From assembly GCA_964458565.1 (NCBI GenBank), contig CAYWJO010000043.1, positions 1 to 30,963 on the forward strand: DNA of 30,963 nucleotides. Reading direction: 5' to 3'. The DNA is from an uncultured archaeon. GTDB taxonomy: Archaea; Asgardarchaeota; Thorarchaeia; Thorarchaeales; Thorarchaeaceae. The number at the start of each line of letters is the position of its first letter. The stretch's first letter is position 1. The notes beneath the pieces are model-generated. The model did not search any database, was not told the origin of the DNA, and worked only from the letters and a program-made list of their open reading frames with translations. This document shows positions 8,980 through 25,519 of the stretch, one piece after another. The position numbers and the translations under genes were made by a program.

Positions 8980-9627
8980 TTATTGTTTTTTGACTTTCTC
9001 CCAATCTTCAAGGAAGCGTTTGATACCCACGTCAGTAAGACTGTGTCTGATCATTTTATCTAGAACTGCTGGAGGAATCGTTGCTATATCAGCTCCAAGA
9101 AGCGCTGCTTCATGAACATGTTCCGGATGGCGAATGCTCGCTACGATAACTTCTGTCGCATATCCATAATTCATGTAGATTTGAACTATATCTGCAATAA
9201 GCTGCATCCCTGGGTGACCAATGTCATCCAACCTACCGATAAACGGTGAAACAAATGTCGCTCCTGCTTTTGCAGCAAGTAGTGCTTGATTTGCACTGAA
9301 ACAGAGAGTGACGTTGGTCTTGATGTCTTCATCAGCAAGCACTTTCACTGCCTTCAATCCTTCCCAAGTCATTGGAATTTTGATTGCTGCATTATCAATC
9401 CAGCCATTCAATTCTCTGGCTTCCTCCAACATACCCTCTGCATCCTCACTAACTACCTCGAGACTGATTGGACCTTCAACAAAAGATGCTATTTCATCTA
9501 CTATCTTTCTGAAATCACGACCTTCTTTTGCTACCAGAGATGGATTTGTTGTTACACCATCAACCATTCCTCGTTCATGGGCTTTTCTAATATCTTCGAC
9601 ATTGGCAGTATCAATAAAGAACTTCAT
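8980..9627 (-). CDS. tal: Transaldolase (small TalC/MipB/FSA-type family)
   Basis: [17 protein letters not shown] and Schiff-base Lys in IKIP. Glu in SLEV and Phe in SPFIGRLDD are the transaldolase-type rather than FSA-type residues. Likely start is ATG 9627. Confidence 0.9.
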
Positions 9628-9784
9628 CGCACTCATCTCAATTATCTGTTGGTTCATATGAGGAATAGCGGAAGTATATTACATTGTCTGTATGTTTGAT
9701 GATCACCAAGGAAGTTTCATCAGATTATTATAATTCTAGTTACTCGACGTTTGAATACATATTTCGCTGTTTCTTCTCATGTAC

Positions 9785-9872: not shown

Positions 9873-10451
9873 ATGTGCGAATTTAGACACACACACTATG
9901 GTCATGGAAGACCCAATGGTCATAGATCTATGAGAAGAAGAACTGCCCGAGTACCTAAAGGATTACTGAGACACTATGTACTGAAACTACTTGATGAGAA
10001 TCCTATGTCTGGCTCAGAAATAATGAGTACAATCTCAGCAAGAACAGAGAATAGATGGGAACCAAGTCCTGGTTCAGTTTATCCACTCCTTTCATGGCTG
10101 CTTGATTCTGGATTTACAAAAATATCCGAAGATCAAGATGTTGGAATAAAACGATATGGTCTCACAGATGAAGGCAAGAAGTTCTTAGAAGAGCATGATG
10201 AAAATCACCCGGACTTCGATCAGAGGATCTTGGATACGGGACCGCACTTTAGAGGTGATATGTCTCGATTTCCAAAAGAGGTCCGAGAATTGTTCAAGGA
10301 TTTCCGAATTATACGACGCTCAAGCAGAAGGCTCCTTAGGCGTTTGGAGAAGGACTATTCGGAAGAAACTGTTGAAAAGGCAAAAGCCGCAATTGCAGAA
10401 TTCATTGAAAAATTGGACCTCTTATCTGAATTTGATGAGTCCAAAGAATAA
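9873..10451 (+). CDS. PadR-family transcriptional regulator
   Basis: GLLRHYVLKLLDENPMSGSEIM...WEPSPGSVYPLL...YGLTDEGK winged-HTH; His/Arg-rich N-terminus; GAGG RBS. Confidence 0.92.
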   Translation: MCEFRHTHYGHGRPNGHRSMRRRTARVPKGLLRHYVLKLLDENPMSGSEIMSTISARTENRWEPSPGSVYPLLSWLLDSGFTKISEDQDVGIKRYGLTDEGKKFLEEHDENHPDFDQRILDTGPHFRGDMSRFPKEVRELFKDFRIIRRSSRRLLRRLEKDYSEETVEKAKAAIAEFIEKLDLLSEFDESKE

Positions 10452-10460
10452 ATCACCATA

Positions 10461-10507
10461 CTTCAGGATGACTGAAGAATGGATAAGTGAGGGGATTAAC
10501 CCCTCAC
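10461..10507. terminator. Two hairpins between convergent padR and maoC
   Basis: CTTCAG-N5-CTGAAG (10461-10477) and GTGAGGGG-ATTAA-CCCCTCAC (10487-10507). Confidence 0.55.
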
Positions 10508-10520
10508 AAAATAATATTCA

Positions 10521-10940
10521 TTATAGATCCATCAATTTTACTGTAGCATCACCATCAATTACTATCTTATCATCCTGATTCGTGCATGTGGTCTTCATTG
10601 TAACACGTTGTTTTTCATCATCCAGCTTCACAACTTCCACTCTAGCTGTGATAATATCACCAATTCTGACTGGGGCAAGAAATCTCATGGTCTGGCCCAA
10701 GTATATTGTTCCAGGTCCTGGTAACTTCATGCCGATTGCAGTACTGATGTATGATGCTGAAAGGAGCCCATGTGCAATACGCCCATTAAACATAGTGGAT
10801 TTAGCCCATTCCTCGTCAAAATGGAGTGGATTATAATCTCCTGTCAGATCACCAAAGGTCTTGACGTCTGCTTCGGTGATTACATGTGTAACCTCAGCGT
10901 ACTGTCCCAATTCAATATCAGAGTATTTTGTAACCTTCAT
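10521..10940 (-). CDS. MaoC/PhaJ-type (R)-specific enoyl-CoA hydratase (hot-dog fold)
   Basis: Hydratase-2 motif FGDLTGDYNPLHFD, plus GRIAHG and LPGPGTIYLGQ; probable ATG at 10940. Confidence 0.9.
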   Translation of the reverse strand: MKVTKYSDIELGQYAEVTHVITEADVKTFGDLTGDYNPLHFDEEWAKSTMFNGRIAHGLLSASYISTAIGMKLPGPGTIYLGQTMRFLAPVRIGDIITARVEVVKLDDEKQRVTMKTTCTNQDDKIVIDGDATVKLMDL

Positions 10941-10985
10941 TGATATCTCTCTCAATCCAATTTTTTATCATCTGTCAGGATGTGC

Positions 10986-12005
10986 TCAATCTACAGGTCC
11001 CCATTTTATAGTCATTGCATTCCATGACCATCCAATCCCAGCAGCAGTCAGAACGACAACATCTCCGTCTTTGATCTTACCACTCTTGAGACCCTCCTCT
11101 AGTGACACAATCGAGTCATTTTGCCCCATATGTCCCCACTCATCGAAATATGTCGATTGTTCATAGGGGTGAACACCACACTCCTTGGCGACATACTCAA
11201 ACGCACTTCTCTTCATCCTGATGAGACCAAGATAGTCAATATCCTCTCTTGAATATCCGCTCTTTTCAAGTGACTCATCAACAACCTTCAGGAAATTACT
11301 CATTGAGAGTCTGTCAAGTCGGTCCTTCAGACCTTCTGGATCTGTTACATCTAGATAGTGTAACCGTTGCTCAATGGTTTCGCAAGTAGCTGGCATCACT
11401 GTGCCTCCTGCTGGAACATACACATCCTCTGAAAACTGACCATCGGAGATGACGCTACCTTCAAGGATTACGTTATGTGGATAGTCATTTCGGAGAATCA
11501 TTGCGACACCACTCGCTGCTAGGTCGTGCATGAAACGAGTCCGAATGTTGGTATAATCAATAAGGTCGCAGTTTCTGTATCCACTGCTAATTAAAACTCG
11601 ATTGTATCCATGGGTCTGCATTAGCGACTTGGCAAGAATCATTGCTACTACGATTGTGCCACACCGTTGGTTGACATCGAAAGCCCACGCTCTGGTCGCA
11701 CTAACTTCATTTTGGAACTTAATCGCATAGGTCTGCATGGGATGCTCAGCATAGACCTCTCCAGCCCATATCACCAAATCGATGTCCTCTACAGGATTAA
11801 TACCTGCTCGTTCGATGGCAATCTTAGCTGCCTTTACGCCCATAGCAACGGTGTGATCATCAGGACCCGGTACTGATTTACTCAACATTCCCATCTTTGT
11901 CTTGATGATTTCCGCAGGAGTTCCAGAGTATTTTGAGATGTACTCCGCTGTATGTCTCTCTGAAGGTATATAGGTTCCAATCGCTTCAATACCAATTGCT
12001 TTCAT
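10986..12005 (-). CDS. 3-oxoacyl-ACP synthase III (FabH)-like thiolase-fold enzyme, non-canonical (Cys115 / Arg263 / His292)
   Basis: IGTYIP, AFDVNQRCG, LIRMKRSA, WGHMGQND, AAGIGWSWNA; ATGA overlap with the upstream ligase. Confidence 0.88.
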   Translation of the reverse strand: MKAIGIEAIGTYIPSERHTAEYISKYSGTPAEIIKTKMGMLSKSVPGPDDHTVAMGVKAAKIAIERAGINPVEDIDLVIWAGEVYAEHPMQTYAIKFQNEVSATRAWAFDVNQRCGTIVVAMILAKSLMQTHGYNRVLISSGYRNCDLIDYTNIRTRFMHDLAASGVAMILRNDYPHNVILEGSVISDGQFSEDVYVPAGGTVMPATCETIEQRLHYLDVTDPEGLKDRLDRLSMSNFLKVVDESLEKSGYSREDIDYLGLIRMKRSAFEYVAKECGVHPYEQSTYFDEWGHMGQNDSIVSLEEGLKSGKIKDGDVVVLTAAGIGWSWNAMTIKWGPVD

Positions 12006-13537
12006 GATTTATCCTCCAGTTCCCTTTTCAGAATCTTTCCCGCCGCACTCTTAGGTAGATCTTCACGAAATTCATAGTACTTGGGTATTTTGTAGCGTGC
12101 TAATTTCCCATCAAAATACTTTCTGATTTCATCTTCTGTCATCGACTCTCCTTCTCTTAGCACAATGAATGCTTTACCTACCTCACCCCATTTTTCGTCT
12201 GGAACTCCTATAACCGCTGATTCAGATATTTTTGGATGTTTGTATAGAATCTCCTCTATTTCAGTAGGGAATATGTTTTCCCCTCCACTGATGAACATGT
12301 CCTTCTTACGACCAACGATATAGTAGAATCCCTCACTATCTCGGAGGACTAAGTCTCCAGTATGAACCCATCCATCTGATGTGATTACTTTAGCTGTTTC
12401 CTCTGGTTCTTCCCAATATCCACTAAACATATGTGGTCCCCTAAGGAGTAGCTCACCTGCTTGTCCGTCTTTCACTGATTGATTTTTATCATCAACTATT
12501 CTCATATCACAGTGAAATACGGGAAATCCCACTGATGTTGGTCTTTCCTTAACAGCATCATCAGGCAGGTAGAAATTGTTTGGTCCCACCTCAGTAAGAC
12601 CGTACCCCATCTTCAATATTTTTCCACGTTCCCAATATTTCTCCATTATGGCAACGGGACATGGAGCTCCGCCACTGATGAAAACTCGCACGCTACTAAA
12701 ATCAGCTTGCTTGAACTTTGGTGATTGTGAAATCATATTGAACATTGTCGGCACTGCAATAACAAGAGTACATTTCTCACGTTCAATTACATTGAGGGTC
12801 TCTTCGGGATTGAAATCACCCATAATGATGCTTAATGCTCCAAAATGGTAGAATGGCATTAACAGCACATTGATACCACCAGTATGAAAGAGCGGAAATA
12901 GCAAGGGTTGAATGTCATTTGGTCGAAGACCCCATGATACAATCGTATTCACTGAATTCCAAAAAACTAATCTGTGAGATAAAACTGCACCCTTTGGTAA
13001 TCCTGTCGTTCCACCAGTGAACACTATCAGATATGGATCGTCAATTGTTATGGTGGGACGCTCTACTGCGCTTGATGCTTTTCTTGTCATAAGTGAGGAT
13101 ACATCCGGGTCGGAATCAAACATCTTATGACCCATAACAACGACTTGTTTCTTTTCGAGAAATGGACGAATCTCTCTAAATTGGTCTCTTAGATCAGGAT
13201 CATAAAATACTATGGAGGGATTTGTTTTCTTCAATAAATATTCGATCTCAGGTGTGGTCAGTCTTATATTGAATGGAGCCAGTATTGCCCCCACTTTTCC
13301 ACAAGCAAAGAGTATGTCAAGAAAATCGAACCTATTCTTTGAGTATACTCCAACTCGGTCTCCTTTTTGTACCCCCGAATCAAGTAACACTCTTGCAACC
13401 TGATTTGCTCGTTTATCCATTATTTCGAAAGTGTATCTCTTATTCTGGATGTTGTCAACGATTGCTTCCCTTTTTGGAGTCAGCAACGCTCTTTTTCCAG
13501 TCCAATCTCCTATCCAAGACCAATCTTTCAGGTCCAT
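12002..13537 (-). CDS. Acyl-CoA synthetase (AMP-forming, long-chain fatty acid/MenE-like) 1
   Basis: FTGGTTGLPKG, GYGLTE, TGD, KDMFISGGENIFP, GKILK. True start is ATG 13537 after an AGGTGA RBS. Confidence 0.92.
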   Translation of the reverse strand: MDLKDWSWIGDWTGKRALLTPKREAIVDNIQNKRYTFEIMDKRANQVARVLLDSGVQKGDRVGVYSKNRFDFLDILFACGKVGAILAPFNIRLTTPEIEYLLKKTNPSIVFYDPDLRDQFREIRPFLEKKQVVVMGHKMFDSDPDVSSLMTRKASSAVERPTITIDDPYLIVFTGGTTGLPKGAVLSHRLVFWNSVNTIVSWGLRPNDIQPLLFPLFHTGGINVLLMPFYHFGALSIIMGDFNPEETLNVIEREKCTLVIAVPTMFNMISQSPKFKQADFSSVRVFISGGAPCPVAIMEKYWERGKILKMGYGLTEVGPNNFYLPDDAVKERPTSVGFPVFHCDMRIVDDKNQSVKDGQAGELLLRGPHMFSGYWEEPEETAKVITSDGWVHTGDLVLRDSEGFYYIVGRKKDMFISGGENIFPTEIEEILYKHPKISESAVIGVPDEKWGEVGKAFIVLREGESMTEDEIRKYFDGKLARYKIPKYYEFREDLPKSAAGKILKRELEDKS

Positions 13538-13735
13538 AGTTAAGTCACCTATTGATTCAGGATGAAACATCATAAGTATTAGTGTTGTTGAAGACAAACT
13601 CAGAAGTCTTCTTAAGAATGCTGGTAGAAAAAGCATCTTCAATTTCATCCAAAACATATATTGGCCAGAACTGAATTCACCAAAGATAACTGACATTGGA
13701 TATGCAATGTCAAAGAGATTCTGGAGGAAGTCGAT
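13538..13735. promoter_or_regulatory. Divergent promoter of the acyl-CoA cluster with a 22-bp near-perfect palindrome
   Basis: TGACATTGGATATGCAATGTCA (13691-13712, 10 of 11 pairs); TATA-like AAAACATATATT near 13651-13662; GAAGAC-N10-GTCTTC at 13590-13611; GGAGG RBS before livG. Confidence 0.6.
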
Positions 13736-14530
13736 TTGTCCTCAACAAATGAATACATCCTTAACACGAGTGGTTTGACCAAAAGATTCGGTGGACTAGT
13801 TGCTGTCAATGATGTAAGCCTTAATGTCGAAAGAGGTTCAATAAAAGCAATCATTGGTCCAAATGGTTCAGGAAAAACCACCTTTTTTAATCTGATTACA
13901 GGAGCACTTCCTCCTTCATCTGGAAAGATATATTTTGAAGGCCAAGATATCACTAGATTTTCAATGCATCAACGGACACGGCAAGGCATATCACGATCAT
14001 ATCAGATAACGAATATTTTTCCATATCAGACTACATTCGAAAATATCCGTTTAGCTGCTCAAGGTTGTAGTGGTTCAAGAGTGAATTTTCTTGGTATGTT
14101 AAAGAAAGCAGGCTCGTTCATCAATTTTCATGAGAAAGTAATTGAAATTGCTACAATAGTAGGTCTTGATCCTGCACGACTGTATATCCCAGCCACTTTG
14201 ATCCCACATGCAGAACAAAGAAAGCTTGAAATCGCAATGGCTCTCGCCACGGATCCGAAACTTCTCTTACTTGACGAACCTGCGGCTGGAATGGCAATAG
14301 AAGAGATACCAGATGTTATTGATGCTATTTTGCGAGTCAAAGAATCCTATGGCGATCGACTAACGCTGTTGGTGGTTGAACACAAAATGGATATTGTTAT
14401 GAAACTCAGTGAGGAAATTATTGTGCTTTCAGAAGGGAAAATTATCGCAAAAGGTCCTCCAAAAGAGATTCAAGAGAATGAACAAGTATTGACAGCTTAT
14501 CTTGGTGGTACAGATGAAAAACTTGCTTGA
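13736..14530 (+). CDS. livG: HAAT (branched-chain-type) ABC transporter ATPase, LivG-like
   Basis: KRFGGLVAV, Walker A GPNGSGKTT, LLLLDEPAAG, VEHKM, AYLG; TTG start with GGAGG RBS. Confidence 0.9.
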   Translation: MSSTNEYILNTSGLTKRFGGLVAVNDVSLNVERGSIKAIIGPNGSGKTTFFNLITGALPPSSGKIYFEGQDITRFSMHQRTRQGISRSYQITNIFPYQTTFENIRLAAQGCSGSRVNFLGMLKKAGSFINFHEKVIEIATIVGLDPARLYIPATLIPHAEQRKLEIAMALATDPKLLLLDEPAAGMAIEEIPDVIDAILRVKESYGDRLTLLVVEHKMDIVMKLSEEIIVLSEGKIIAKGPPKEIQENEQVLTAYLGGTDEKLA

Positions 14531-15236
14531 AATACAAAATGCTCATGTATACATTGGGTCTTTCTATATTCTTCAAGGAATATCAATTGTTGTACCCAAG
14601 GGAGAAGTAACTCTATTATTGGGTAGGAACGGATCCGGTAAAACCACAACAATGAAGACAATACTTGGTATATATCCACCGAGAGAAGGAAAGATTGTTT
14701 TCAACGGTGAGGAGTTATCAAATCTACGCACCCATGAAATAGTCAACAAAGGAATCGGGTATGTTCCTGACACCAGAAGGATATTTGGAACATTGACGGT
14801 TGAACAAAATCTAATTGTGTCGATGCGGAAGGGAGGTCTTAAAGGTGATGTGCAGGAACGATTGGACTTCATTTTTGACCTGTTTCCTGACATGAAGAGA
14901 TTCTACAAGCAGAGAGCAAGTGCTCTTTCAGGTGGTCAGCAGCAGATGCTAGCTGTGGCTCGTGCGTTGATGAATGATAACGATTTGCTACTTATAGACG
15001 AGCCCACAGAAGGCCTAAGTCCCCTCCTAGCCAAGAATCTCATCAATGCTCTTGGCCAACTGAAGGAGTTTGCTACTATCCTATTAATAGAACAGAACTT
15101 TCGAGCTGTGTCTAAGCTAGGTGATAACTACTACATTTTCGATGGTGGAAAAATCGTCCATGAAGGAGATAACATGACTGAGCTAATAGCTGACAAGGCA
15201 CGTGTTGCGCAATATTTGGGGGTAAGCATCAAATGA
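14514..15236 (+). CDS. livF: HAAT ABC transporter ATPase, LivF-like
   Basis: GRNGSGKTT, LSGGQQQMLA, LLIDEPTEGL, LIEQN; likely ATG at 14514. Confidence 0.9.
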   Translation: MKNLLEIQNAHVYIGSFYILQGISIVVPKGEVTLLLGRNGSGKTTTMKTILGIYPPREGKIVFNGEELSNLRTHEIVNKGIGYVPDTRRIFGTLTVEQNLIVSMRKGGLKGDVQERLDFIFDLFPDMKRFYKQRASALSGGQQQMLAVARALMNDNDLLLIDEPTEGLSPLLAKNLINALGQLKEFATILLIEQNFRAVSKLGDNYYIFDGGKIVHEGDNMTELIADKARVAQYLGVSIK

Positions 15237-16345
15237 CCATGCAAAGAAAGAGATTCTCTCCTCGGGACTACTTGGAGGAAAACCCACAAGCTCGCAAAAT
15301 ATTGAGAATTGCACTGGTGATTGCACTCATAATAATAGGAGTTCTATCGGTTTTAGCTGCCATAAACATCTATTCATGGGATGGATTCGTTGTTAAAGCT
15401 AGCAAATCACTAGTTAATGGTCTTGCACTTAGCATGTTGCTCTTCTTGATGGTTTCAGGTTTCTTCTTAATCTTTGGTCTATGTGATGTAATCAATTTCG
15501 CACACGGTGCGTTCTTTATGTTGGGTGGTTTCATGGGTTTTACAATCTATCTCGCAACCGAGGCTATTTTCCTAGACCCAGCCCTACCGTTCTATTTTAT
15601 CTTCGGAGCTAACCAATTTGCCATGTCAGTCACAGCTTTTATTGTGAGTGCCCTTGGAGCTACAGCAGTTATGGCTCTGATTGGTGGAGGAATAGAGTTC
15701 TTTACAATTCGGCGGCTTTACGGTAATCCTATTGCTCAGATACTGCTGACAGTTGGTTTTATGTTCATTATCACTCAGATTGCTGAGATTTTCTGGGGAC
15801 CTTCACAGTTTTCCTATTTTATTATTCCCAATTCGCAAATAAACTACTTCTTCATCAGTGGTATATTTGATTTTGGCGGTGGGCTGCAATTTGCGGTTTA
15901 CCGGATTTTCTTGATTTTTCTAGGGTTAGCAGTTGCTGGATTAATGTTTATAGGATTCAGAAAGACACGTATTGGACTCCAGATACAAGCAGGAATAGAA
16001 GATAAGGAGATGGTTGAAGCATTGGGGACTGATATCAGAAAATTGTTTACAATTGTGTTTATGTTGGGTGCAGGTCTTGCGGGACTATCAGGTGCTGTCC
16101 TAGTCCCATGGATTGGAGCGAACTCGGGTCATGGTCTCACATACCTCATATACGCATTTGTCATAGTTGTTGTTGGAGGCGCCCATTATGGTCGCTTTGA
16201 AGGGACTTTCTTTGGAGCACTTGTAGTCGGTCTATCAATTCAAATTACATCATATTTCATTCCATTTCTTGAGGACATTATCGTATTTATCATTATGGCG
16301 ATTATTTTGATAATAAAACCAGGAGGATTGACAGGTCATGCTTAA
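15233..16345 (+). CDS. livH: HAAT ABC transporter permease, LivH-like
   Basis: GFFLIFGLCDVINFAHGAFFMLG, LAGLSG, FVIVVVGG, KPGGL; ATGA overlap with livF. Confidence 0.9.
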   Translation: MTMQRKRFSPRDYLEENPQARKILRIALVIALIIIGVLSVLAAINIYSWDGFVVKASKSLVNGLALSMLLFLMVSGFFLIFGLCDVINFAHGAFFMLGGFMGFTIYLATEAIFLDPALPFYFIFGANQFAMSVTAFIVSALGATAVMALIGGGIEFFTIRRLYGNPIAQILLTVGFMFIITQIAEIFWGPSQFSYFIIPNSQINYFFISGIFDFGGGLQFAVYRIFLIFLGLAVAGLMFIGFRKTRIGLQIQAGIEDKEMVEALGTDIRKLFTIVFMLGAGLAGLSGAVLVPWIGANSGHGLTYLIYAFVIVVVGGAHYGRFEGTFFGALVVGLSIQITSYFIPFLEDIIVFIIMAIILIIKPGGLTGHA

Positions 16346-18113
16346 TGTAAGAACTATCGTAAGGAAACTGAAAGCAATTATCCATCGGATACCCTCCATA
16401 CTGTCAAACAATAGAACAGTAATAGCTGTTCTTGCGTTTTTGTATCTACTCCCCTTGGGTACAGCAGCAGGTACGTCCCCTGTTCGAACTTTGCTCTTCC
16501 TCATTACTAAGATAATGATCTTTGGTCTTCTTGCAATGTCTTTTGATCTACAATTAGGACGTGCATCGCTTCTGAATTTCGGACATGTTGCACTTTTTGG
16601 TGTGGGCGCTTATTTCATGGCATATACGTTAGACGCAGATTTTCTCCCCCCACCCTTTAATCTCATAGCTGCGATTCCATTTCCCCTTTCATTAATTGTA
16701 GCAATGATGATTGGCGGTGGTCTCGGGTTCATAATGGGTCTGACAACGAGCCGCATGAGAGGCACAGCGTTTGCATTCATTGCTTTAGCGATTGCGATGT
16801 TTATCTATAATTTCTTCTCTGATAATTCTGATTTATCTGGGGGCGAGACAGGACTGACGTTACCAACTCCTGCTCTCATTAGGACTGCGCCTTTCTATCT
16901 GCTTTTTGTCATACTTGCATTTGTATTCCTTGCCGCATTTATTGGAATGGTCGTCCTTTACATAAAGAAGCAGACAGAATCTATCGGTCTAATTCTGGTT
17001 TCTCTAGTTATGGTACCCTTTACAGGTTTGCTATTGTTTTTCGGGACAAATGTCTTTGGACCTGTGTTAGTTTTCATTGCATTTCTTGGGATGATTCTTT
17101 TCTATCGGATTAAACAGAGTAAATCAACTAGTGATCCTCTTCAATATTCTGAGAACCAAACACTCACAGGGAAAGTAAAACCAGCAAATATCCTGACTAC
17201 CTACGTATTACCTTTCATTATCATATTGATAGCCATCATTGGTTTGGTTGTAAGTTTTGGTACAAACATTGCTCAAATGATATCACTGTGGATCGAAGAT
17301 AAATCCACTGTTTACTACACTATTCCAGTGCAATTCTATCTAGTATTGACTTGTCTAGTGATAGTCTATGTTTTCATAAGACGATTAATTGCATCACCAT
17401 TTGGGAGAATGGTTATTGCGGTCGCTCAAAACGAAGAACGTGCTGAAGCTTTGGGCTATAATAGTTATCGTACTAAAATTGTTATACTTGTCATTAGTGG
17501 AGCAATTGCCGCCCTTGCGGGGGCGTTGTATGCACCATTCATTAGAATTATTGATCCGTCCACCGTATTAGGAGTTGAAGTTACAATCAGTGCAATGTTG
17601 TACACCATCATCGGAGGAATTGCTACACTACTTGGTCCAATACTCGGATCAGGAGTCGTAGTGTACTCTGAGTCAAATCTAGTGGATGTCATCAAGTACG
17701 GTCTAGGTCTACCTGGACAATTATGGTTGGTGGGGCTAGGAGTGATGTACATACTCATTGTCCTATTCATGCCTTTTGGTATCGTTGGTTCAACTGGGAG
17801 AAGGTTCGACTCTGTCAAAGGGAAACTACAACGAATGAAATTACGTCAATTTGAGTTTGGACTAAAAGATGCTGATTATTGGGTATTTGGATTACTTGGT
17901 GCAATGGGCATATTCCTATTGTTAACGGAAGATAGTGGAGTACTCCCTATTGCTATCGGAATATTTGGATTACTGGGGACAATTGGTTTTCTCCTATTGT
18001 TAATCTTTAGAAGGGAGATTTGGTCACGATTGAAATCTTCCAGTGGAAGGTTGAAATCGAGATCGATAACTTTCGGTGGAAGGATAAGATCGAGATTAAG
18101 AGGAAGGAAGTGA
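16338..18113 (+). CDS. livM: HAAT ABC transporter permease, LivM-like, enlarged (591 aa)
   Basis: LLNFGHVALFGVGAY, SGGETG, SPFGRMVIAVAQNEERAEALGY, IIGGIATLLGP, MPFGIVG; extra hydrophobic insert and C-terminal extension. Confidence 0.88.
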   Translation: MLNVRTIVRKLKAIIHRIPSILSNNRTVIAVLAFLYLLPLGTAAGTSPVRTLLFLITKIMIFGLLAMSFDLQLGRASLLNFGHVALFGVGAYFMAYTLDADFLPPPFNLIAAIPFPLSLIVAMMIGGGLGFIMGLTTSRMRGTAFAFIALAIAMFIYNFFSDNSDLSGGETGLTLPTPALIRTAPFYLLFVILAFVFLAAFIGMVVLYIKKQTESIGLILVSLVMVPFTGLLLFFGTNVFGPVLVFIAFLGMILFYRIKQSKSTSDPLQYSENQTLTGKVKPANILTTYVLPFIIILIAIIGLVVSFGTNIAQMISLWIEDKSTVYYTIPVQFYLVLTCLVIVYVFIRRLIASPFGRMVIAVAQNEERAEALGYNSYRTKIVILVISGAIAALAGALYAPFIRIIDPSTVLGVEVTISAMLYTIIGGIATLLGPILGSGVVVYSESNLVDVIKYGLGLPGQLWLVGLGVMYILIVLFMPFGIVGSTGRRFDSVKGKLQRMKLRQFEFGLKDADYWVFGLLGAMGIFLLLTEDSGVLPIAIGIFGLLGTIGFLLLLIFRREIWSRLKSSSGRLKSRSITFGGRIRSRLRGRK

Positions 18114-18118
18114 TTGAT

Positions 18119-18937
18119 TTGCCATATGCAACAATAGGAAACATCGATATTTATTACGAGATTCATGGACCACCTGACGCTCCACCTCTTGTGCTCATTG
18201 GAGGATGGGCTAGCTATCGCTGGATCTGGTTTCGACAAATTCCCGCATTTAAGGAAAAATACAGATGCGTAGTCTTTGATAATCGTGGAGCAGGAAGAAG
18301 TTCTAAGCCTGACTATCCATATACCATGGAAATGTTCGCTGATGACACTGTTGGTCTGATGGATTCACTGAAGATTGAAAACGCACATATTCTTGGGATT
18401 TCAATGGGAGGATTGATTGCGCAGCAAATTGCTATTTCCTATCCTGAAAAGATCCGAAGTTTGATTCTTGTGTCCACTCACTTTGGAGGACCCAATTCTA
18501 TCCCAATGGATGATAAAACAATGGCTTTGCTAATTGCTCTTCCCACTGAAACAATCTCAAAAGAGCAAGCCCGAGATATGCGCTACAGAGCTACCTTCAG
18601 TCCACAATTCCTCCAAGAGAACAGGTCAGTGATGGAGCAGATAGATGAATGGGCAGAACGGCATCCTGCACCGTTGTATGCACAAGTGCATCAAAGTTCT
18701 GCGGTGGGTGGGTTCAATGCTGAATCGGAAGTGAAGCAAATATCAGCACCCACACTTATCATACACGGAGATAGTGATCGCGCTGTCCCAACTAGGAATA
18801 GTGAACTGTTAGCTGATAGTATATCCAACTCAAAATTGGTTCTTATAGAAGGCGGTTCACATTTTAGCATCATTGAGAAATACGAAGTGTTCAATAATGC
18901 TGTAATAAACTTCATAGACGAAGTGGAAAGGGGTTAG
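18119..18937 (+). CDS. Alpha/beta-fold hydrolase 1 (enol-lactonase/esterase-like); start TTG 18119 or GTG 18110
   Basis: IYYEIHG, DNRGAGRS, nucleophile GISMGG, acid HGDSD, His GGSHF. Confidence 0.9.
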   Translation: MPYATIGNIDIYYEIHGPPDAPPLVLIGGWASYRWIWFRQIPAFKEKYRCVVFDNRGAGRSSKPDYPYTMEMFADDTVGLMDSLKIENAHILGISMGGLIAQQIAISYPEKIRSLILVSTHFGGPNSIPMDDKTMALLIALPTETISKEQARDMRYRATFSPQFLQENRSVMEQIDEWAERHPAPLYAQVHQSSAVGGFNAESEVKQISAPTLIIHGDSDRAVPTRNSELLADSISNSKLVLIEGGSHFSIIEKYEVFNNAVINFIDEVERG

Positions 18938-18986
18938 GCTACCCCTTATGGCAAGAAATGGTTAATCAAACTCGAAGGATGCTAGA

Positions 18987-19997
18987 ATGGTTCGTTCAGC
19001 TGTAATAACAGGTTTGGGAATGTACGTGCCTGAGAAGATGTTGACAAATGAAGATATTGAGCATATGCTTGGCCGTCCTGGGACAGCAGATTGGTTGGTA
19101 AAGAACGTTGGAATCAGACAGCGTCATGTAATGGCTGAAGATGAGGTGACATCTGATCTCGCCGTGCATGCTAGTCGTGAAGCATTGGAAAATGCAGATG
19201 TAGATGCTGAAGACCTTGACCTAATCATTTTGAGTACTGACACACCGGACTATCTATCTCCCGCAACATCAGTAGTGGTTCAATACAAACTCGGAGCGAA
19301 GAATGCAGGTACTTTTGATGTCAATTGTGCTTGTGCAGGTCTGGTTACTTCTTTGGACATAGCCTCTCGTTACATTAGAACAGATTCTGATATCAATTCG
19401 GTTTTGGTGATTGGGGCATACGGAATGACCAAATTTGTTGATTGGACGGATCACTATACATGTACCTTGTTTGCTGATGCTGCAGGAGCTATGGTCTTAC
19501 GAGCCAGCGAAGACAAAGAAGGATTCATTGCCTCAAAACTGATTGCGGATGGCTCTTTCCACGACCATTTAGGAATCTTCGTCGGAGGAACTTCAGAACC
19601 CCCAACTGTTGAAGCGATCCGGAACAATCGACATCATCTAGCGTTTCGTAAGCGCTTTCCTGCAGATACAAACCTTCAACACTGGCCAGCTATGACAAGA
19701 GATTGTGTATCAAAGGCGAATCTGTCCATCGATGATATCGATTGGATCTTCTTCACTCAAGTAAATATACGAACCATTGAGGCTGTTATGAAGGAACTAG
19801 GCATGCCGCTCGAAAAGACTCACAATGTCATGGATAAATGGGGATACACTGGTTCGGCTTGTATCGCATTAGCAATGTACGATGCCATTAAACAAGGAAA
19901 GATTCCACCTCCCGGACAAGGAAATGGGGAGAATATTGCTCTCTGCTCGTCAGGAGGAGGTTTCAACATGGCAGCGGCAGTACTGAGATGGTGGTAA
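18987..19997 (+). CDS. 3-oxoacyl-ACP synthase III (FabH)-like enzyme 2, non-canonical (Cys116 / Thr257 / Tyr287)
   Basis: ITGLGMYVP, GIRQRH, TDTPDYLSPATS, DVNCACAG, LFADAAGA, FFTQVN, WGYTGSA, SGGGF. Confidence 0.9.
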   Translation: MVRSAVITGLGMYVPEKMLTNEDIEHMLGRPGTADWLVKNVGIRQRHVMAEDEVTSDLAVHASREALENADVDAEDLDLIILSTDTPDYLSPATSVVVQYKLGAKNAGTFDVNCACAGLVTSLDIASRYIRTDSDINSVLVIGAYGMTKFVDWTDHYTCTLFADAAGAMVLRASEDKEGFIASKLIADGSFHDHLGIFVGGTSEPPTVEAIRNNRHHLAFRKRFPADTNLQHWPAMTRDCVSKANLSIDDIDWIFFTQVNIRTIEAVMKELGMPLEKTHNVMDKWGYTGSACIALAMYDAIKQGKIPPPGQGNGENIALCSSGGGFNMAAAVLRWW

Positions 19998-20077
19998 GGG
20001 ATTTTTATTACGGTTGAGACTGATAATATAAGAAGCGATTTTGCTTCTTTGTCAAGAACAGAATTCCTATCGAAGGG

Positions 20078-21625
20078 ATGTCAATGGTTAATCAGTTTGA
20101 TTATCTATCCAAGCGAAACATCTTCTCTCCCGAGGTCGAAGCATTAGTAGATGTAGAAACCGGGACACGATATTCGTATAGTGCGTTCAACAAACGAGCG
20201 AATAGAGTCGCAAACTTCCTCCAACAAGGGGTTGGATTTCAAAAAGGAGATCGTCTATGTATCCTCGCTCAAAATAGCCTGGAGTATTGGGAGGCATTTT
20301 TCGGATGCCAAAAGTGTGGAGGGATTTTCAGTCCGCTCAACTGGCGTCTGGTTGTTCGAGAGTTAGCTGGTCTGGTCGATGACCTTTCTCCTTCCGTACT
20401 ATTCTTTGATTCCGACTTAGCTGCTGTTGCATCAGAGTTGAAACAAGAAGTCACTGTTAATCACTGGGTTTCATTGGATTCAAGAGGAACAGAACTGGAT
20501 GGTTCTCTGAAATACGAGGATGTTCTGAGTAAAGTAGCAACAGATCCTCCAACACCTGTTGACCTCTCTTATGATGATCCGATGGGTATCGTTTTCACTG
20601 GTGGAACAACAGGACTACCAAAAGGTGCTATGATAACCTACAGACAGGTTGCGTTCAACACTCTTAGTACAATTAGAGATATACTTCCAGGTGATGTTTT
20701 TATTAATCATCTACCTTTGTTTCATGTCGGAGGACTGTATGTATATGCTATTCCGCTTTTCATTCTGGGAGGGAAAGTAATCCAGATGAAGAGATGGGAT
20801 CTAGACACATTAGTGAGTGTGATCAATAAAGAGAATCCTAACTTCTTCTTTGCTGTTCCTACACAATATCGCATGCTGATGAACCATCCCGATTTTAAAT
20901 CGATTGACTTCAGTAACGTTCGGTTTTTGACATCTGGAGGTGAGCCTCTACCCCTAGACATCATCAAGACCTACCGAGAAGCTCATGGAGTCAAATTCAA
21001 GCAGGGGTTTGGAATGACGGAAGTTGGACCAGGATGTTTTGCTCTTGACCCATGGGATGCTGAACGAAAGGTTGGTGGTATTGGTACTCCTAATTTCTTC
21101 ATAGACGCAAAAGTGGTTGATCCTGAGACTGGAACGGATTGCAATGCGAATGAGGTCGGTGAACTTCTATTTAAAGGGCCCACAGTGACGATTGGTTACT
21201 GGAATCGACCAGAATTGAACAAGACACTCCTAGATGAAGCCGGTTGGTTTCGAACAGGTGATATGGTGTATTTTGATGAGGAAGGTTACTACTTTGTAGT
21301 TGATCGAGTAAAGGACATGTTCATTTCGGGAGGTGAAAACGTCTATCCTAGAGAAATTGAGAAGCTTTTAGAACAGTATCCAAAGATAGCTCAAGTACAG
21401 GTTATCGGTGTATCTGATCCCAAATGGGGAGAAGTCGGACGCGCTATTGTTGTTTTGAGATCAGGGCAAGAAGCTACGGAAGCAGAAATACTTGATTTTT
21501 GTAAAGGCGAATTAGCCAAATTCAAGATACCCAAATCAGTGGTTTTTGTGGACAGTTTTACAGATTACATTTCTGGAGCTGGGAAAATCTTGAAACGGAA
21601 ATTAAGAGAGGACTTTGGAAAATAG
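20078..21625 (+). CDS. Acyl-CoA synthetase (AMP-forming) 2
   Basis: FTGGTTGLPKG, GFGMTE, GWFRTGD, KDMFISGGENVYP, GKILK. Confidence 0.92.
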   Translation: MSMVNQFDYLSKRNIFSPEVEALVDVETGTRYSYSAFNKRANRVANFLQQGVGFQKGDRLCILAQNSLEYWEAFFGCQKCGGIFSPLNWRLVVRELAGLVDDLSPSVLFFDSDLAAVASELKQEVTVNHWVSLDSRGTELDGSLKYEDVLSKVATDPPTPVDLSYDDPMGIVFTGGTTGLPKGAMITYRQVAFNTLSTIRDILPGDVFINHLPLFHVGGLYVYAIPLFILGGKVIQMKRWDLDTLVSVINKENPNFFFAVPTQYRMLMNHPDFKSIDFSNVRFLTSGGEPLPLDIIKTYREAHGVKFKQGFGMTEVGPGCFALDPWDAERKVGGIGTPNFFIDAKVVDPETGTDCNANEVGELLFKGPTVTIGYWNRPELNKTLLDEAGWFRTGDMVYFDEEGYYFVVDRVKDMFISGGENVYPREIEKLLEQYPKIAQVQVIGVSDPKWGEVGRAIVVLRSGQEATEAEILDFCKGELAKFKIPKSVVFVDSFTDYISGAGKILKRKLREDFGK

Positions 21626-21636
21626 GAGGATGAATC

Positions 21637-22431
21637 ATGCCAATCAGAAAAATAAATGGAATCAATATCTACTATGAAATACACGGTCAAGGCGAACCTG
21701 TTATTTTTGGGAATGGTATCTTCTCAAACACATTGGGATGGGTAAATCAACTCTCCACGTTTTCAAGAGAGTATCAGGTTATCCTCTATGACATGCGTGG
21801 ACAAGGGCAAAGCGATAAACCGAAGGGTCCGTATTCCTTCGATATCCATGCAGACGATCAAATGGCTCTTCTCGAAGAACTTGGTATTTCTAAGGTTCAT
21901 CATGTTGGAATCAGCTATGGCGCAGAATTAGGTATGGTCTTCGCATTGAAGTATCCAGATACACTGAAGAGCCTAGTTGTTTGCAGTGGTGTCTCGTTCG
22001 TGGGAACATTGCTCTATAAGATGTGTGAATTATGGAGATATGCCTGTGTGCTTGAGGACCCTGAGTTGTTCTATTATGCAACACTCCCCTTGAATTTTGG
22101 AGAAACTTTTCTTAAAGCGCAAGCTGCTATATTGGAACAAGCAAAGGCACGCTATGCTCAACTTGATTTTGCAGCACTAGTAAGGTTAATTGATTCATTC
22201 CTCATGCTAGACATTACGGAGCAATTACCAAAGATCAAAATACCTACCTGTGTCATTGCAGGTGAGAAAGACATTTTAAAACCAGCTCATCCCTATTCTA
22301 GCTTGATTCATGATAGTTTGTCTAATTCGGAAATGGTGATTGTCCGTGATTCAGGACATGCCATTACATTTGAAAAACCTGAGGAGTTCAACAGCATAGT
22401 TCTAGGGTTCTTACATAAACAATTCCTGTAA
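21637..22431 (+). CDS. Alpha/beta-fold hydrolase 2
   Basis: DMRGQGQS, GISYGA nucleophile elbow, AGEKD, SGHA; GGAGG RBS. Confidence 0.9.
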   Translation: MPIRKINGINIYYEIHGQGEPVIFGNGIFSNTLGWVNQLSTFSREYQVILYDMRGQGQSDKPKGPYSFDIHADDQMALLEELGISKVHHVGISYGAELGMVFALKYPDTLKSLVVCSGVSFVGTLLYKMCELWRYACVLEDPELFYYATLPLNFGETFLKAQAAILEQAKARYAQLDFAALVRLIDSFLMLDITEQLPKIKIPTCVIAGEKDILKPAHPYSSLIHDSLSNSEMVIVRDSGHAITFEKPEEFNSIVLGFLHKQFL

Positions 22432-22514
22432 TATACTCTTTAGAGTAACGCTGTTCTTTGGTTTTTTAATTTCCCAAGAGATAAATAGCAGGAACACTAC
22501 TAAAAGTGGTTAGG

Positions 22515-22534
22515 CATAGAACATTCTATGTTCT
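22515..22534. promoter_or_regulatory. Overlapping inverted repeats upstream of the substrate-binding protein gene
   Basis: CATAGAA-CA-TTCTATG (22515-22530) and AGAACAT-TCT-ATGTTCT (22518-22534) in a 153-bp intergenic gap. Confidence 0.35.
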
Positions 22535-22584
22535 TACTCTAACAGTATTCTTGAAAAAGAAGTATTGATTAGGGAGGATAGAAG

Positions 22585-24105
22585 ATGAAAAAAAATAAAA
22601 CAATATCTCTATCTCTGTCGCTGCTATTATTAGTATCCATCTTCCTACCTTGTTTATTTGTTACACCAGCTGTTTCACAAGTAACTCCGATTAAAATTGG
22701 AATTTTCACCCCTGAAACAACAGGTCTGACGGCTTATGCACCTTGGACAAAACAAGGCTTCGAGTTGGGAATGATATATGCAACTACGATGATGGGATAT
22801 AACAATGAGAATAAGACTCAAGCGGGTCGACCCTATGAGCTTCATTATTATGATACACAAGGTTCAGTTGTCGAGGCAGCAACCAAAGCGGTAGAAGCTA
22901 TCGAAACGGATGGCATTGACATTCTCGTCGGAGGAACTTCTAGTGCAGTTGCCGCAGCAATAGCACCTATTGCAGAAGATTACGAGAAGCTATATTTCAT
23001 AACACCAGCTGCTGCTTCTTCGCTAACTGCAGCGGACTTTAATCCATACATTTTCCGTATCGCCAGAAATAACTGGCATGATGCCTATGCTGGGGTTACG
23101 TATGCTATGGATTACCTCAACTATACGAAATTTGCCTTTCTTGCTGCTGATTATTCCTTTGGATATGATGGCGTTGCATCAATGACGAGTGTAATAGAGG
23201 AGAAGGGAGGAGTGGTGATCACTAGCTTGTATGCCAATCTATTTGATAATGATTTCACTCAGGAGATTGATGCTCTCAAAGCTGCTGATGTAGTAAACGA
23301 TATTGAGTATTTGTTTATTATTTGGGCTCTTGACTTCTCATATCTCTACAATGATTTATCAACATATGGTCTTGCAGCTGATATGGAAATTGCAGGAGCA
23401 TGTATTGATATTCTTTCCATGAACACTATTGAAGCTAGTTTGACTCCTCCAGCTACCTATGAGAATTCTACCGGACTCTGTCTATATGGCTATGAACTAC
23501 CAAACAATACGGTAAATGACTGGATGGTGGCTCAACATGTCACCAGAAACATCAAGCCAAATGGTCAATATGGACTTCAATATAGAGTTCCGGAACTTTT
23601 CACAGCAAGTGGGTTTGCTACGGCGCAATTCTTGGTAGATGTAACGAATGCAATCCCTGACCTCAATACTAATCTGATGATCAATTATCTCGAAAGTGGT
23701 ATTACGATAGACACCCCGAAGGGACCAACATATTTGAGACCTGATGATCATCAAGGGCTTGCAGAGATGTATATCGCCAGAGCTGTGAATGATACACGCC
23801 CAGCGTCCGAAACATATAATCTCATCATTGCGGATTTGGTTAGAACCCTCGACCGTAACGAAGTTGCGCCTCCAATTGAATCAGGTTATACACCCGGCGG
23901 ATTTGCACCAACGACAACAGGAACAACAACGGAAACAACAACGGAAACAACAACGGGACCAACAACGGGAACGACATCAGAAACAACATCAGAAACAACG
24001 CCAGTACCCACTGGATTTGATGTTCTCACTCTCACTTTGATAGTTGGTGGTGTTGGTGTAGTTCTAATCATTGTAATTGCTGTAATTTGGTTGCGGAAGA
24101 AGTAA
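22585..24105 (+). CDS. ABC transporter substrate-binding protein (LivK/type I PBP) with signal peptide, Thr-rich linker and C-terminal TM anchor
   Basis: IKIGIFTPETTG, ILVGGTSSAVA, AADYSFG, TPKGPTYLRPDDHQ; T-rich linker; LTLIVGGVGVVLIIVIAVIWLRKK. Confidence 0.9.
   Translation: MKKNKTISLSLSLLLLVSIFLPCLFVTPAVSQVTPIKIGIFTPETTGLTAYAPWTKQGFELGMIYATTMMGYNNENKTQAGRPYELHYYDTQGSVVEAATKAVEAIETDGIDILVGGTSSAVAAAIAPIAEDYEKLYFITPAAASSLTAADFNPYIFRIARNNWHDAYAGVTYAMDYLNYTKFAFLAADYSFGYDGVASMTSVIEEKGGVVITSLYANLFDNDFTQEIDALKAADVVNDIEYLFIIWALDFSYLYNDLSTYGLAADMEIAGACIDILSMNTIEASLTPPATYENSTGLCLYGYELPNNTVNDWMVAQHVTRNIKPNGQYGLQYRVPELFTASGFATAQFLVDVTNAIPDLNTNLMINYLESGITIDTPKGPTYLRPDDHQGLAEMYIARAVNDTRPASETYNLIIADLVRTLDRNEVAPPIESGYTPGGFAPTTTGTTTETTTETTTGPTTGTTSETTSETTPVPTGFDVLTLTLIVGGVGVVLIIVIAVIWLRKK
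23908..24003 (+). repeat. Imperfect 12-bp tandem repeat encoding the Thr-rich linker
   Basis: ACAACAACGGAA-like units encoding TTTE/TTTG/TTSE. Confidence 0.8.
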
Positions 24106-24144
24106 TGGTTCATCTTGAACCATTATTTTTTTCTTTTTTTTTTT
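24103..24144 (+). terminator. Intrinsic terminator ending the right-arm operon
   Basis: TAATGGTTCA-TCT-TGAACCATTA perfect 10-bp stem followed by a long T tract. Confidence 0.8.
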
Positions 24145-24247
24145 CTCATATTCTTAGTTGATACTGGACAGATAATTTACTCTAGGTCCCTGAATTTGTA
24201 AATGGGCCTAAAATCAAATATCACAGCATTTGATGTTTCATGAAAAA

Positions 24248-24847: not shown

Positions 24848-25519
24848 TTAAGCGCCATCTAGAATGGCTTTGAGTCTCCTTGTAGTATCCTCAATGTTAT
24901 CCGTTTTGAAGACAGCAGAACCCGCTATGAAAAAATCAGCACCAGCTTTTCTAATCTCAGCGATATTCTCCATCTTGACGCCCCCATCTATTGCAATTCT
25001 AACCGAAGGTTTGTGCTCATCCAATAATTCTCGTAATTCTGTGATCTTGGTCATTACCGATGGGATAAAGCTCTGTCCTCCAAAACCCGGACATACGCTC
25101 ATTAGCATAATTCTATCCAATAGGTCCAGAAGTGGAACGACGCTTGATATTGGTGTTGCAGGATTTAGAGTAATACCCGCCTTGCCTCCTAAGTCTGTAA
25201 TCATTTGTACAGTCCTATAAACATCATAATCACCCTCAATATGAGGATAGAGTAGTTCAACCCCTGCATCCAAAAACCTAGGTATGTACTCCCTGGGTTT
25301 TGTGATCATTAGGTGTGCGTCTAAGGGAACATCAGTGATTCTCTTCATAGTCTTAGCAATCCAAGGTCCGAAGCTAATGTTCGGTACAAAATGTGAGTCC
25401 ATGATATCGAGGTGGAAATAATCTGCTCCACCACGTTCAGCTGCTTTCACGTCCTCCGCGAGATGCGCAAAGTCTGCGGATAGTATTGAAGGTGCAAGCA
25501 TGGGTTTCATTAGAATCAT
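24848..25519 (-). CDS. rpe: Ribulose-phosphate 3-epimerase
   Basis: LAPSILSADF, HLDIMDSHFVPN, DAHLM, MSVCPGFGGQ, IDGG, AGSAVF. Confidence 0.95.
   Translation of the reverse strand: MILMKPMLAPSILSADFAHLAEDVKAAERGGADYFHLDIMDSHFVPNISFGPWIAKTMKRITDVPLDAHLMITKPREYIPRFLDAGVELLYPHIEGDYDVYRTVQMITDLGGKAGITLNPATPISSVVPLLDLLDRIMLMSVCPGFGGQSFIPSVMTKITELRELLDEHKPSVRIAIDGGVKMENIAEIRKAGADFFIAGSAVFKTDNIEDTTRRLKAILDGA

Follow-up and report, generated by a model that had tools for sequence, protein, structure and literature searches.

A divergent gene cluster with two atypical KAS III-fold enzymes in a Thorarchaeota genome, and its possible role in the uptake and degradation of polyester fragments

FabH, the 3-ketoacyl-acyl carrier protein synthase III (KAS III) of type II fatty acid synthesis (FAS II), carries a Cys-His-Asn catalytic triad. 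The same fold serves non-FabH chemistry in OleA, PqsBC and the CerJ/ChlB6/DpsC group, all of which are biosynthetic and differ in active-site residues from the enzymes described below. Importer-linked, CoA-dependent catabolic operons are likewise already known as a kind, but the KAS clades considered here are unstudied. These two themes meet in a cluster of 12 genes at positions 10521-24105 of contig CAYWJO010000043.1 (C43; 30,963 nucleotides, hereafter the window), from the 93% complete genome of an uncultured member of the Thorarchaeota (assembly GCA_964458565.1). The cluster encodes a complete ABC importer of the hydrophobic amino acid transporter (HAAT) type, two acyl-CoA ligases, two alpha/beta-type serine hydrolases, a MaoC/PhaJ-type hydratase and two enzymes of the KAS III fold, here termed KAS-A and KAS-B. 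It is not a unique twin-enzyme system, and results from the joining of two separable modules of a widespread prokaryotic cluster. With moderate confidence, we regard it as a system for catabolic scavenging, likeliest for the water-soluble fragments (monomer and short oligomers) of bacterial polyhydroxyalkanoate (PHA), in particular (R)-3-hydroxybutyrate oligomers.

Comparison with described KAS III-fold enzymes

KAS-A and KAS-B share with FabH the fold and the nucleophilic Cys. Their predicted models (pLDDT 96 and 90) have FabH as best structural match, and KAS-B superposes on it with a Z of 47 and an rmsd (root mean square deviation) of 1.8 over 321 residues. The triad is not shared, however. 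KAS-A (Cys115, Glu83, Tyr143) has Arg263 and KAS-B (Cys116, Asp85, Tyr145) has Thr257 at the FabH His position, and the FabH Asn is replaced by His292 and Tyr287, respectively, giving Cys/Arg/His and Cys/Thr/Tyr. With the His/Asn pair that FabH requires for it replaced in both, neither enzyme, judged by its sequence, can carry out FabH-type malonyl decarboxylation, which agrees with the initial annotation of the window. KAS-B scores 192 on the profile PRK06840, under the cut-off of 315 that KAS-A exceeds.

The partners of FAS II are also missing. The cluster itself is without acyl carrier protein (ACP), FabD, short-chain dehydrogenase/reductase (SDR), acyl-CoA dehydrogenase or thiolase and holds no complete beta-oxidation, no match to PF00698 (FabD) was found in the genome, and the only ACP-like gene found there belongs to an FkbH cluster elsewhere. 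Thus, the view that the system is ACP-independent and distinct from FAS II is upheld. The ACP-like gene (78 aa) lies on contig C10 (L141:2994-6917) together with polysaccharide deacetylase-like, acetyltransferase-like, FkbH-domain (317 bits over cut-off) and AcpS-like genes; this run probably represents an ACP system of an Asgard archaeon and has no relation to the cluster.

Residues were tallied over 118 KAS-A and 93 KAS-B homologues. Glu83 of KAS-A is invariant (118/118), as are Asp85, the Cys, Tyr145 and Tyr287 of KAS-B (93/93), and Thr occupies the FabH His position in 91 of the 93 KAS-B sequences. At the same position in KAS-A, Arg is found in 76 of the 79 closest homologues, mostly from Thorarchaeota, and His in all 39 of the more distant ones. 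The pair in KAS-A is thus Arg/His in the Thorarchaeota-type group and His/His in the remaining sequences, which argues that a His at the FabH His position is dispensable. Common to both enzymes are the invariant Cys, the acidic residue and the Tyr (143/145); canonical FabH sequences mostly have Thr, Ser or a small hydrophobic residue at the acidic position, which is Thr81-like, and Glu or Asp at that of the Tyr. In KAS-A of the Bacillus cereus group (L042:13995-14990), Ser replaces the catalytic Cys and the conserved Glu is missing.

The acidic residue also invites comparison with 3-hydroxy-3-methylglutaryl-CoA (HMG-CoA) synthase. Asp85 of KAS-B aligns with the general-base Glu (GSES motif) of the genome's own HMG-CoA synthase, and Glu83 of KAS-A falls in the same column or one column off, depending on gap placement. 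From the residues common to both enzymes we infer that KAS-A and KAS-B may share one non-decarboxylative mechanism. By contrast, the catalytic His of HMG-CoA synthase is missing from both (Arg or Thr), identity to that enzyme is about 22%, and the HMG-CoA synthase family profile gives 67-76 against a cut-off of 244. A canonical cluster of HMG-CoA synthase, thiolase and DUF35 genes, of the archaeal type, is present on contig C31; some bacterial and archaeal relatives of the present cluster likewise add a thiolase, with or without DUF35.

Nor do the other described enzymes of the fold agree in the features compared. OleA uses Glu117, within a LEPS motif, as base; KAS-B reads YLSP at this site, and neither KAS keeps the His/Asn pair of OleA. 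One subunit of PqsBC is without the Cys, whereas KAS-A and KAS-B both keep it and occur mostly singly. The Cys-His-Asp triad of CerJ/ChlB6 is absent, since the FabH His position holds another residue in KAS-B and in Thorarchaeota KAS-A. Neither the gene set nor either KAS clade was found described, and no account of the pathway under PRK06840, 3N0X or Thorarchaeota FabH and no match to a characterised pathway were found, in the accessible literature, most subscription journals lying outside the search.

Two separable arms and a widespread core

The twelve coupled genes reported initially are all intact, and profile matches confirm the families then assigned. They form two divergent arms, each with one ligase-KAS pair: on the minus strand ligase A, KAS-A and MaoC, and on the plus strand the four LivGFHM-like genes, hydrolase 1, KAS-B, ligase B, hydrolase 2 and the binding protein. 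The gene set co-occurs in other genomes, its order being kept in many Thorarchaeota loci at 60-93% identity, and the cluster is therefore not a chance assembly.

Among 251 Asgard genomes, KAS-A exceeds the PRK06840 cut-off in 73. The binding protein is found in 26, 25 of which also have a KAS-B-like-scoring gene, and KAS-B-scoring genes likewise occur in 26. About two thirds of the Asgard genomes with KAS-A are without KAS-B, and several Thorarchaeota have the left arm alone. Because KAS-A is present in 73 genomes and the binding protein in 26, and because of these left-arm-only Thorarchaeota, the arms are considered separable. In the twin layout, an arm that is broad among Asgards (ligase A, KAS-A, MaoC) has merged with a narrower one (importer, hydrolases, KAS-B, ligase B).

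Bacteria have similar clusters, as had been suspected, and the system is less peculiar to archaea than initially supposed. KAS-A accompanied by an ABC importer is found in the Bacillus cereus group and also in haloarchaea, while KAS-B occurs in Chloroflexota, Caldisericia, Bipolaricaulota, Bacteroidota and Thermofilum, in most bacterial loci without KAS-A. Of 27 non-Asgard loci with KAS-B that span 8 kb or more, a ligase and a hydrolase are present in 26, an importer in 22, and a MaoC or FabG-type SDR gene in 17. The widespread core thus consists of an importer, a serine hydrolase, a CoA ligase and an atypical KAS III, to which an (R)-specific hydratase or a FabG-type reductase is often added. 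The B. cereus group cluster (TetR, ligase, MaoC, PRK06840 KAS, NHL propeller, liv-like ABC transporter) shares a homologous ligase, MaoC, KAS-A and importer with the window, but has a single KAS, with Ser for Cys, and no hydrolase in the slice examined. We take the transporter GBAA_1931-1936 of B. anthracis to belong to this locus. An amino-acid cargo of that transporter has been predicted only (bioRxiv 10.1101/2021.12.09.472043).

In a quick tree, Asgard KAS-A forms its own clade (95) and Asgard KAS-B (100) falls within a clade of largely Chloroflexota-like sequences (98), with sampling that was biased, most rows lacking taxonomy and one non-homologous row included. Since sampling was biased, taxonomy sparse and no one-clade test was made, no donor lineage is claimed.

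Four unrelated importers serve the core: HAAT, TonB with MFS, SSS with TonB, and an AAT-like permease. In loci lacking the ABC importer, the usual neighbours of ligase A and KAS-A, whether MaoC is present or not, are a hydrolase and an AAT-like permease; this permease occurs in 15 of 19 Asgard slices that have no HAAT, and the genome of the window yielded none. That such different importers are attached to one enzyme core is our main argument for uptake and degradation rather than synthesis. The AAT-like permease, a membrane protein of about 400 aa that belongs to no Pfam family and whose atlas look-alike is an AAT family transporter (L021:16819-17991 and 14 more Asgard loci, L154-L171), is likely an undescribed organic-acid permease. 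A Myxococcota-type KAS-B operon (L107:4015-6891) includes a lipoprotein-like gene and one for what is probably an outer-membrane barrel outside any named family; these may provide another way of uptake. A stand-alone protein of 132 aa in one cluster (L059:4183-4581) is similar to a portion of a sensor kinase encoded next to a different cluster (L106:10334-12685) and possibly represents a ligand-sensing domain.

The same distribution bears on ACP-free biosynthesis, in which each ligase would activate its own acid and a KAS-A/KAS-B heterodimer would condense the two to a signal or lipid in the manner of PqsBC or OleA. The joining of two different acids by the KAS pair had been one option of the initial annotation, and in favour of such synthesis both enzymes keep the Cys and an acidic residue near the general-base position of HMG-CoA synthase, and twin KAS with twin ligases recur in several bacterial loci. 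The predicted KAS-A:KAS-B complex scored 0.94, against 0.00 for the best control, though the score may reflect likeness to solved KAS III dimers and was obtained with no homodimer control. The runs agree in at least 95% of contacts, the partners have a pLDDT of at least 92, and the mark applied was reached by 58 of 80 solved complexes and by 2 of 110 mismatched pairs. The interface seen in the prediction appears, however, to be the ordinary homodimer face of FabH structures, and the two genes are mostly found apart; the model thus indicates no more than that a heterodimer is possible. KAS-A occurs without KAS-B in most Asgard carriers, in Bacillus and in haloarchaea, and KAS-B occurs alone in most bacterial loci, each with the same core genes, so that an obligate pair joining two acids is not supported. 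Importers and hydrolases recur among the neighbours, whereas exporter and tailoring genes do not. Overall, biosynthesis is improbable, and the interchangeable importers, together with the depolymerase and dehydrogenase neighbours described below, point to catabolism.

The least probable of the readings considered is salvage of bacterial membrane lipids, in which acylglycerols or long-chain fatty acids would be taken up, activated by FadD-like ligases and passed to beta-oxidation. The ligases do resemble Staphylococcus FadD and FadD13, and beta-oxidation genes exist elsewhere in Thorarchaeota. Against this, the ligase scores are under the FadD cut-offs, saturated fatty acids need no (R)-hydratase, and acyl-CoA dehydrogenase genes were found in just 2 of all loci examined and in none of the KAS-B loci.

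Candidate substrates and reactions

Bacterial utilisation of extracellular polyhydroxybutyrate (PHB) relies on a depolymerase, an oligomer hydrolase and BdhA or PhaJ. The window has a PhaJ-type hydratase in common with this route but neither Bdh nor a secreted depolymerase, whereas relatives of the cluster do carry a depolymerase, Bdh or PhaC-like gene. We know of no described PHB route with KAS III-fold enzymes or paired CoA ligases. The uptake transporter for 3-hydroxybutyrate was considered largely unknown in a 2021 review (PMC8000602).

PHA-specific genes sit co-directionally inside relatives from three lineages. The TonB-type locus L080 encodes a secreted short-chain-length (scl) PHA depolymerase (NF050058, 294 bits against a cut-off of 150), with homologues in L128 and L135. 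In Chloroflexota-like loci (L074, L112, L152) a class III PhaC-like synthase (314 bits, under the cut-off of 365) just precedes KAS-A, and in Mariluticola (L049) a 3-hydroxybutyrate dehydrogenase (TIGR01963, 370 against 307) lies directly before a binding protein of the subfamily of PDB entry 3N0X. The Chloroflexota-like operons (L074:3263-5166, L112:1332-3247, L152:1-1878) begin with two small unannotated open reading frames (ORFs) and the PhaC-like synthase and have no recognised PhaE; the small ORFs are possibly an undescribed PHA synthase partner.

The hydratase of the window also points to (R)-3-hydroxyacyl compounds. Its best solved relatives are the (R)-specific enoyl-CoA hydratases 5CPG (E 5e-35) and 1IQ6, and it retains the catalytic motif D-x-N-P-L-H, with the Asp and His typical of hydratase 2. 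In some relatives of the cluster a FabG-type reductase takes its place. PhaJ hydratases and FabG-type reductases both act on (R)-3-hydroxyacyl-CoA.

The binding protein, which has an N-terminal hydrophobic leader, a Thr-rich linker and a C-terminal membrane anchor, is no ordinary amino-acid receptor of the LivJ/LivK type: it scores 25 on LivJ, against a cut-off of 477. The structure next after 3N0X reaches E 2e-16; members of the 3N0X subfamily match at E 1e-42 to 1e-53, other HAAT proteins at best at 1e-22. In Alcanivorax sp. 24, the share of the binding protein ALC24_2998 in the exoproteome goes up about 20-fold, from 0.3% to 7-9%, on PHB and on PHBV (log2 4.4-4.7), with a log2 of 2.2 on PES and no significant change on BHET, and the leucine-isoleucine-valine-binding protein ALC24_3167 is unchanged on PHB (PMC7187450). 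ALC24_2998 shows motifs of the 3N0X subfamily along the length of its printed sequence, and a 33-residue motif from it gives scores of 70-106 with six members (proteobacterial, Bacillus and Chloroflexota-type) and of 21-47 with other HAAT proteins, its placement thus being by eye and by one short motif. An NHL-repeat protein encoded three genes from ALC24_2998 is co-induced (PMC7187450). In Bacillus, too, there is an NHL-repeat gene, with KAS-A on one side and the binding protein on the other; searching for homologues of its product did not retrieve the Alcanivorax protein. Fusibacter has a relative of this Bacillus NHL protein (L174:3780-10842), whose neighbours are a sigma-54 activator, an acyl-CoA dehydrogenase, a hydrolase and a CoA transferase of two subunits.

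Class III PhaC was not found in any of the 251 Asgard genomes searched, on which ground PHA synthesis by the host was rejected, and contig C4 of the genome encodes a crotonase, an (S)-3-hydroxyacyl-CoA dehydrogenase and a thiolase. Taken together, these observations fit a consumer rather than a producer of PHA. Contig C2 (L140:7663-8586) encodes an esterase with an N-terminal hydrophobic leader that resembles extracellular scl-PHA depolymerases and is a candidate upstream enzyme. Catabolism of 4-hydroxybutyrate was also considered, as CoA transferases of that kind occur in some relatives, and was rejected, no dehydratase recurring among the neighbours.

In the proposed route, the importer would take up (R)-3-hydroxyacid monomers and oligomers, the two serine hydrolases might cleave ester bonds, and the two ligases, whose family is clear, could form the CoA thioesters of monomer and oligomer. 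The earlier notion that an imported ester is hydrolysed and then activated with CoA is supported. The KAS enzymes, with their Cys, conserved acidic residue and Tyr, would catalyse a non-decarboxylative acyl transfer to CoA. The KAS Cys would take the acyl group from an oligomer-CoA ester and hand it to CoA, running the chemistry of PHA synthase or CerJ in reverse and saving ATP; the ester-thioester exchange of CerJ/ChlB6/DpsC offers a precedent. The PhaJ-type hydratase would turn (R)-3-hydroxybutyryl-CoA into crotonyl-CoA, and the enzymes encoded on C4 would carry this to acetyl-CoA. Oligomers would best explain the KAS step, because the monomer alone needs just a ligase and the hydratase. We tentatively favour such CoA-dependent cleavage of the oligomer-CoA ester. 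Thiolysis of acetoacetyl-CoA comes next and is doubtful; an acetoacetyl-CoA thiolase role fits the reductase-containing loci and fits less where, as in some KAS-B loci, a thiolase adjoins KAS-B. Elimination or retro-aldol cleavage ranks after thiolysis. CoA thiolysis of PHB itself has been documented for PhaZ (PMC5658603).

Several observations weigh against PHA fragments as substrate. Only 5 of 70 metagenome KAS-B loci have PHA-specific neighbours, and each set of these comes from related genomes; the Mariluticola locus continues with importer and hydrolase but has no KAS gene, and adjacency of ALC24_2998 to a KAS gene is not shown. The binding protein of the window is distant from the Bdh-linked and PhaC-linked bacterial members (30-34% identity), reads RNNWHD in place of the conserved RNSSQD, and scores just 43 with the Alcanivorax motif, where shuffling gives up to 39. 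The two hydrolases reach 82 and 70 on the PHA depolymerase profile NF050089 (cut-off 300) and 81 and 56 on TIGR02240 (cut-off 251). The C2 esterase, the only depolymerase-like secreted esterase of the genome, scores 138 against a cut-off of 150, and only 2 of 251 Asgard genomes have a PF10503 match at E 1e-8. In addition, ester thiolysis is energetically uphill and needs a downstream pull.

Some of this evidence would suit another small ester or lactone handled by the same catabolic logic, such as hydroxycinnamate esters or mixed short-chain hydroxyacid esters. In the hydroxycinnamate variant, a hydrolase would be a feruloyl esterase and a ligase would be Fcs, with MaoC and KAS performing hydration and retro-aldol cleavage. 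Ligase A, which also speaks against PHA fragments, has feruloyl-CoA synthetase (8WEV, E 7e-105) as its best PDB match, followed by FadD13. The best family of both hydrolases is the enol-lactonase PcaD, though under its cut-off (for hydrolase 1 the best PDB matches are the esterases 6EB3 and 8V16), HAAT proteins bind aromatic acids in Rhodopseudomonas, and the binding protein of the window has diverged from the PHB-induced one. However, neither aldehyde dehydrogenase nor ring-cleavage genes recur among the clustered neighbours of the loci examined, and the sole aromatic-degradation locus has a far more distant binding protein (26%, E 5e-22). As PhaJ, FabG-type SDR, PhaC-like, PHB depolymerase and Bdh neighbours indicate (R)-3-hydroxyacids, we consider another ester rather unlikely, and retain scavenging of PHA fragments as the preferred explanation.

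Locus layout and biological meaning

The features of the cluster are listed in Table 1. The start of ligase A is most likely the ATG at 13537, Met54 of the listed ORF, judging from an upstream GGTGA and from homologue alignment, and hydrolase 1 probably starts near 18119. Hairpin terminators had been proposed at both ends; the one at the right end holds, with a hairpin and T-run (24095-24133), whereas at the left end an 11-bp hairpin (10456-10482) gave no call in a terminator scan. Between the arms, two short A/T-rich elements (13560-13670) are conserved across Thorarchaeota and are probably putative promoters with a B recognition element and TATA box (BRE-TATA), one per arm. Two regulatory candidates were discarded: an 8-bp palindrome (13691-13712) as operator is not conserved in 18 other Thorarchaeota loci, and the convergent PadR gene (9873-10451) adjoins the cluster in 0 of 29 related loci.

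Table 1. Features of the divergent cluster and its borders in the window
Feature	Position	Strand	Basis or remark
MaoC/PhaJ-type (R)-specific enoyl-CoA hydratase	10521..10955	-	Pfam MaoC
KAS-A, KAS III fold, NCBIfam PRK06840	10986..12005	-	418 bits vs cut-off 315
Acyl-CoA ligase A, PRK06839-like	12002..13537	-	AMP-binding domains
Divergent region, putative promoters	13538..13735		Alignment of 19 Thorarchaeota intergenic regions
HAAT ABC ATPase, LivG-like	13736..14530	+	ABC_tran and BCA_ABC_TP_C
HAAT ABC ATPase, LivF-like	14502..15236	+	ABC_tran
HAAT permease, LivH-like	15233..16345	+	BPD_transp_2; far under LivH and UrtB cut-offs
HAAT permease, LivM-like	16338..18113	+	BPD_transp_2; under LivM and UrtC cut-offs
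Serine hydrolase 1, PcaD-like esterase	18119..18937	+	GISMG nucleophile; Asp and His motifs retained
KAS-B, KAS III fold, unnamed clade	18987..19997	+	Alignment to FabH
Acyl-CoA ligase B	20078..21625	+	39% identity to ligase A
Serine hydrolase 2	21637..22431	+	GISYG nucleophile; Asp and His motifs retained
Substrate-binding protein, Peripla_BP_6, PDB 3N0X subfamily	22585..24105	+	3N0X match E 3e-38
Hairpin then long T-run, likely right-arm terminator	24095..24145	+	

The flanks (5547-7319, 8980-9657, 24848-25519, 28683-30953) encode MutL-like and MutS-like proteins (by motif), a transaldolase and a ribulose-phosphate epimerase, which are rarely found beside the cluster in other Thorarchaeota loci (transaldolase once, epimerase never). 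At 25-2652 lies a gene for a polytopic membrane protein of 875 aa, with a C-terminus that appears SpoIIM-type-like by eye.

In its most far-reaching and unlikely form, the proposal is that KAS-A and KAS-B represent a new thiolase-fold class that reverses PHA-synthase chemistry on 3-hydroxybutyrate oligomer-CoA, or eliminates to crotonyl-CoA, and by which energy-limited anaerobes, Asgards included, harvest bacterial polyester. If this were true, activation would cost less than one ATP per monomer of the harvested storage polyester, and the binding-protein subfamily would be the missing ABC importer for PHB breakdown products. Scavenging of PHA fragments, if borne out, would by itself assign functions to two widespread enzyme clades that databases wrongly label FabH, and to a transporter subfamily now labelled, again wrongly, for the uptake of branched-chain amino acids. 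The matter has a bearing on anaerobic bioplastic degradation, and cultured carriers exist in the Bacillus cereus group, Halobaculum, Thermofilum and marine Alphaproteobacteria. For the Asgard archaea, a false sign of fatty-acid synthesis would be removed from their genomes, and bacterial PHA from dead cells would become a concrete carbon source for the uncultured lineages living in sediments.

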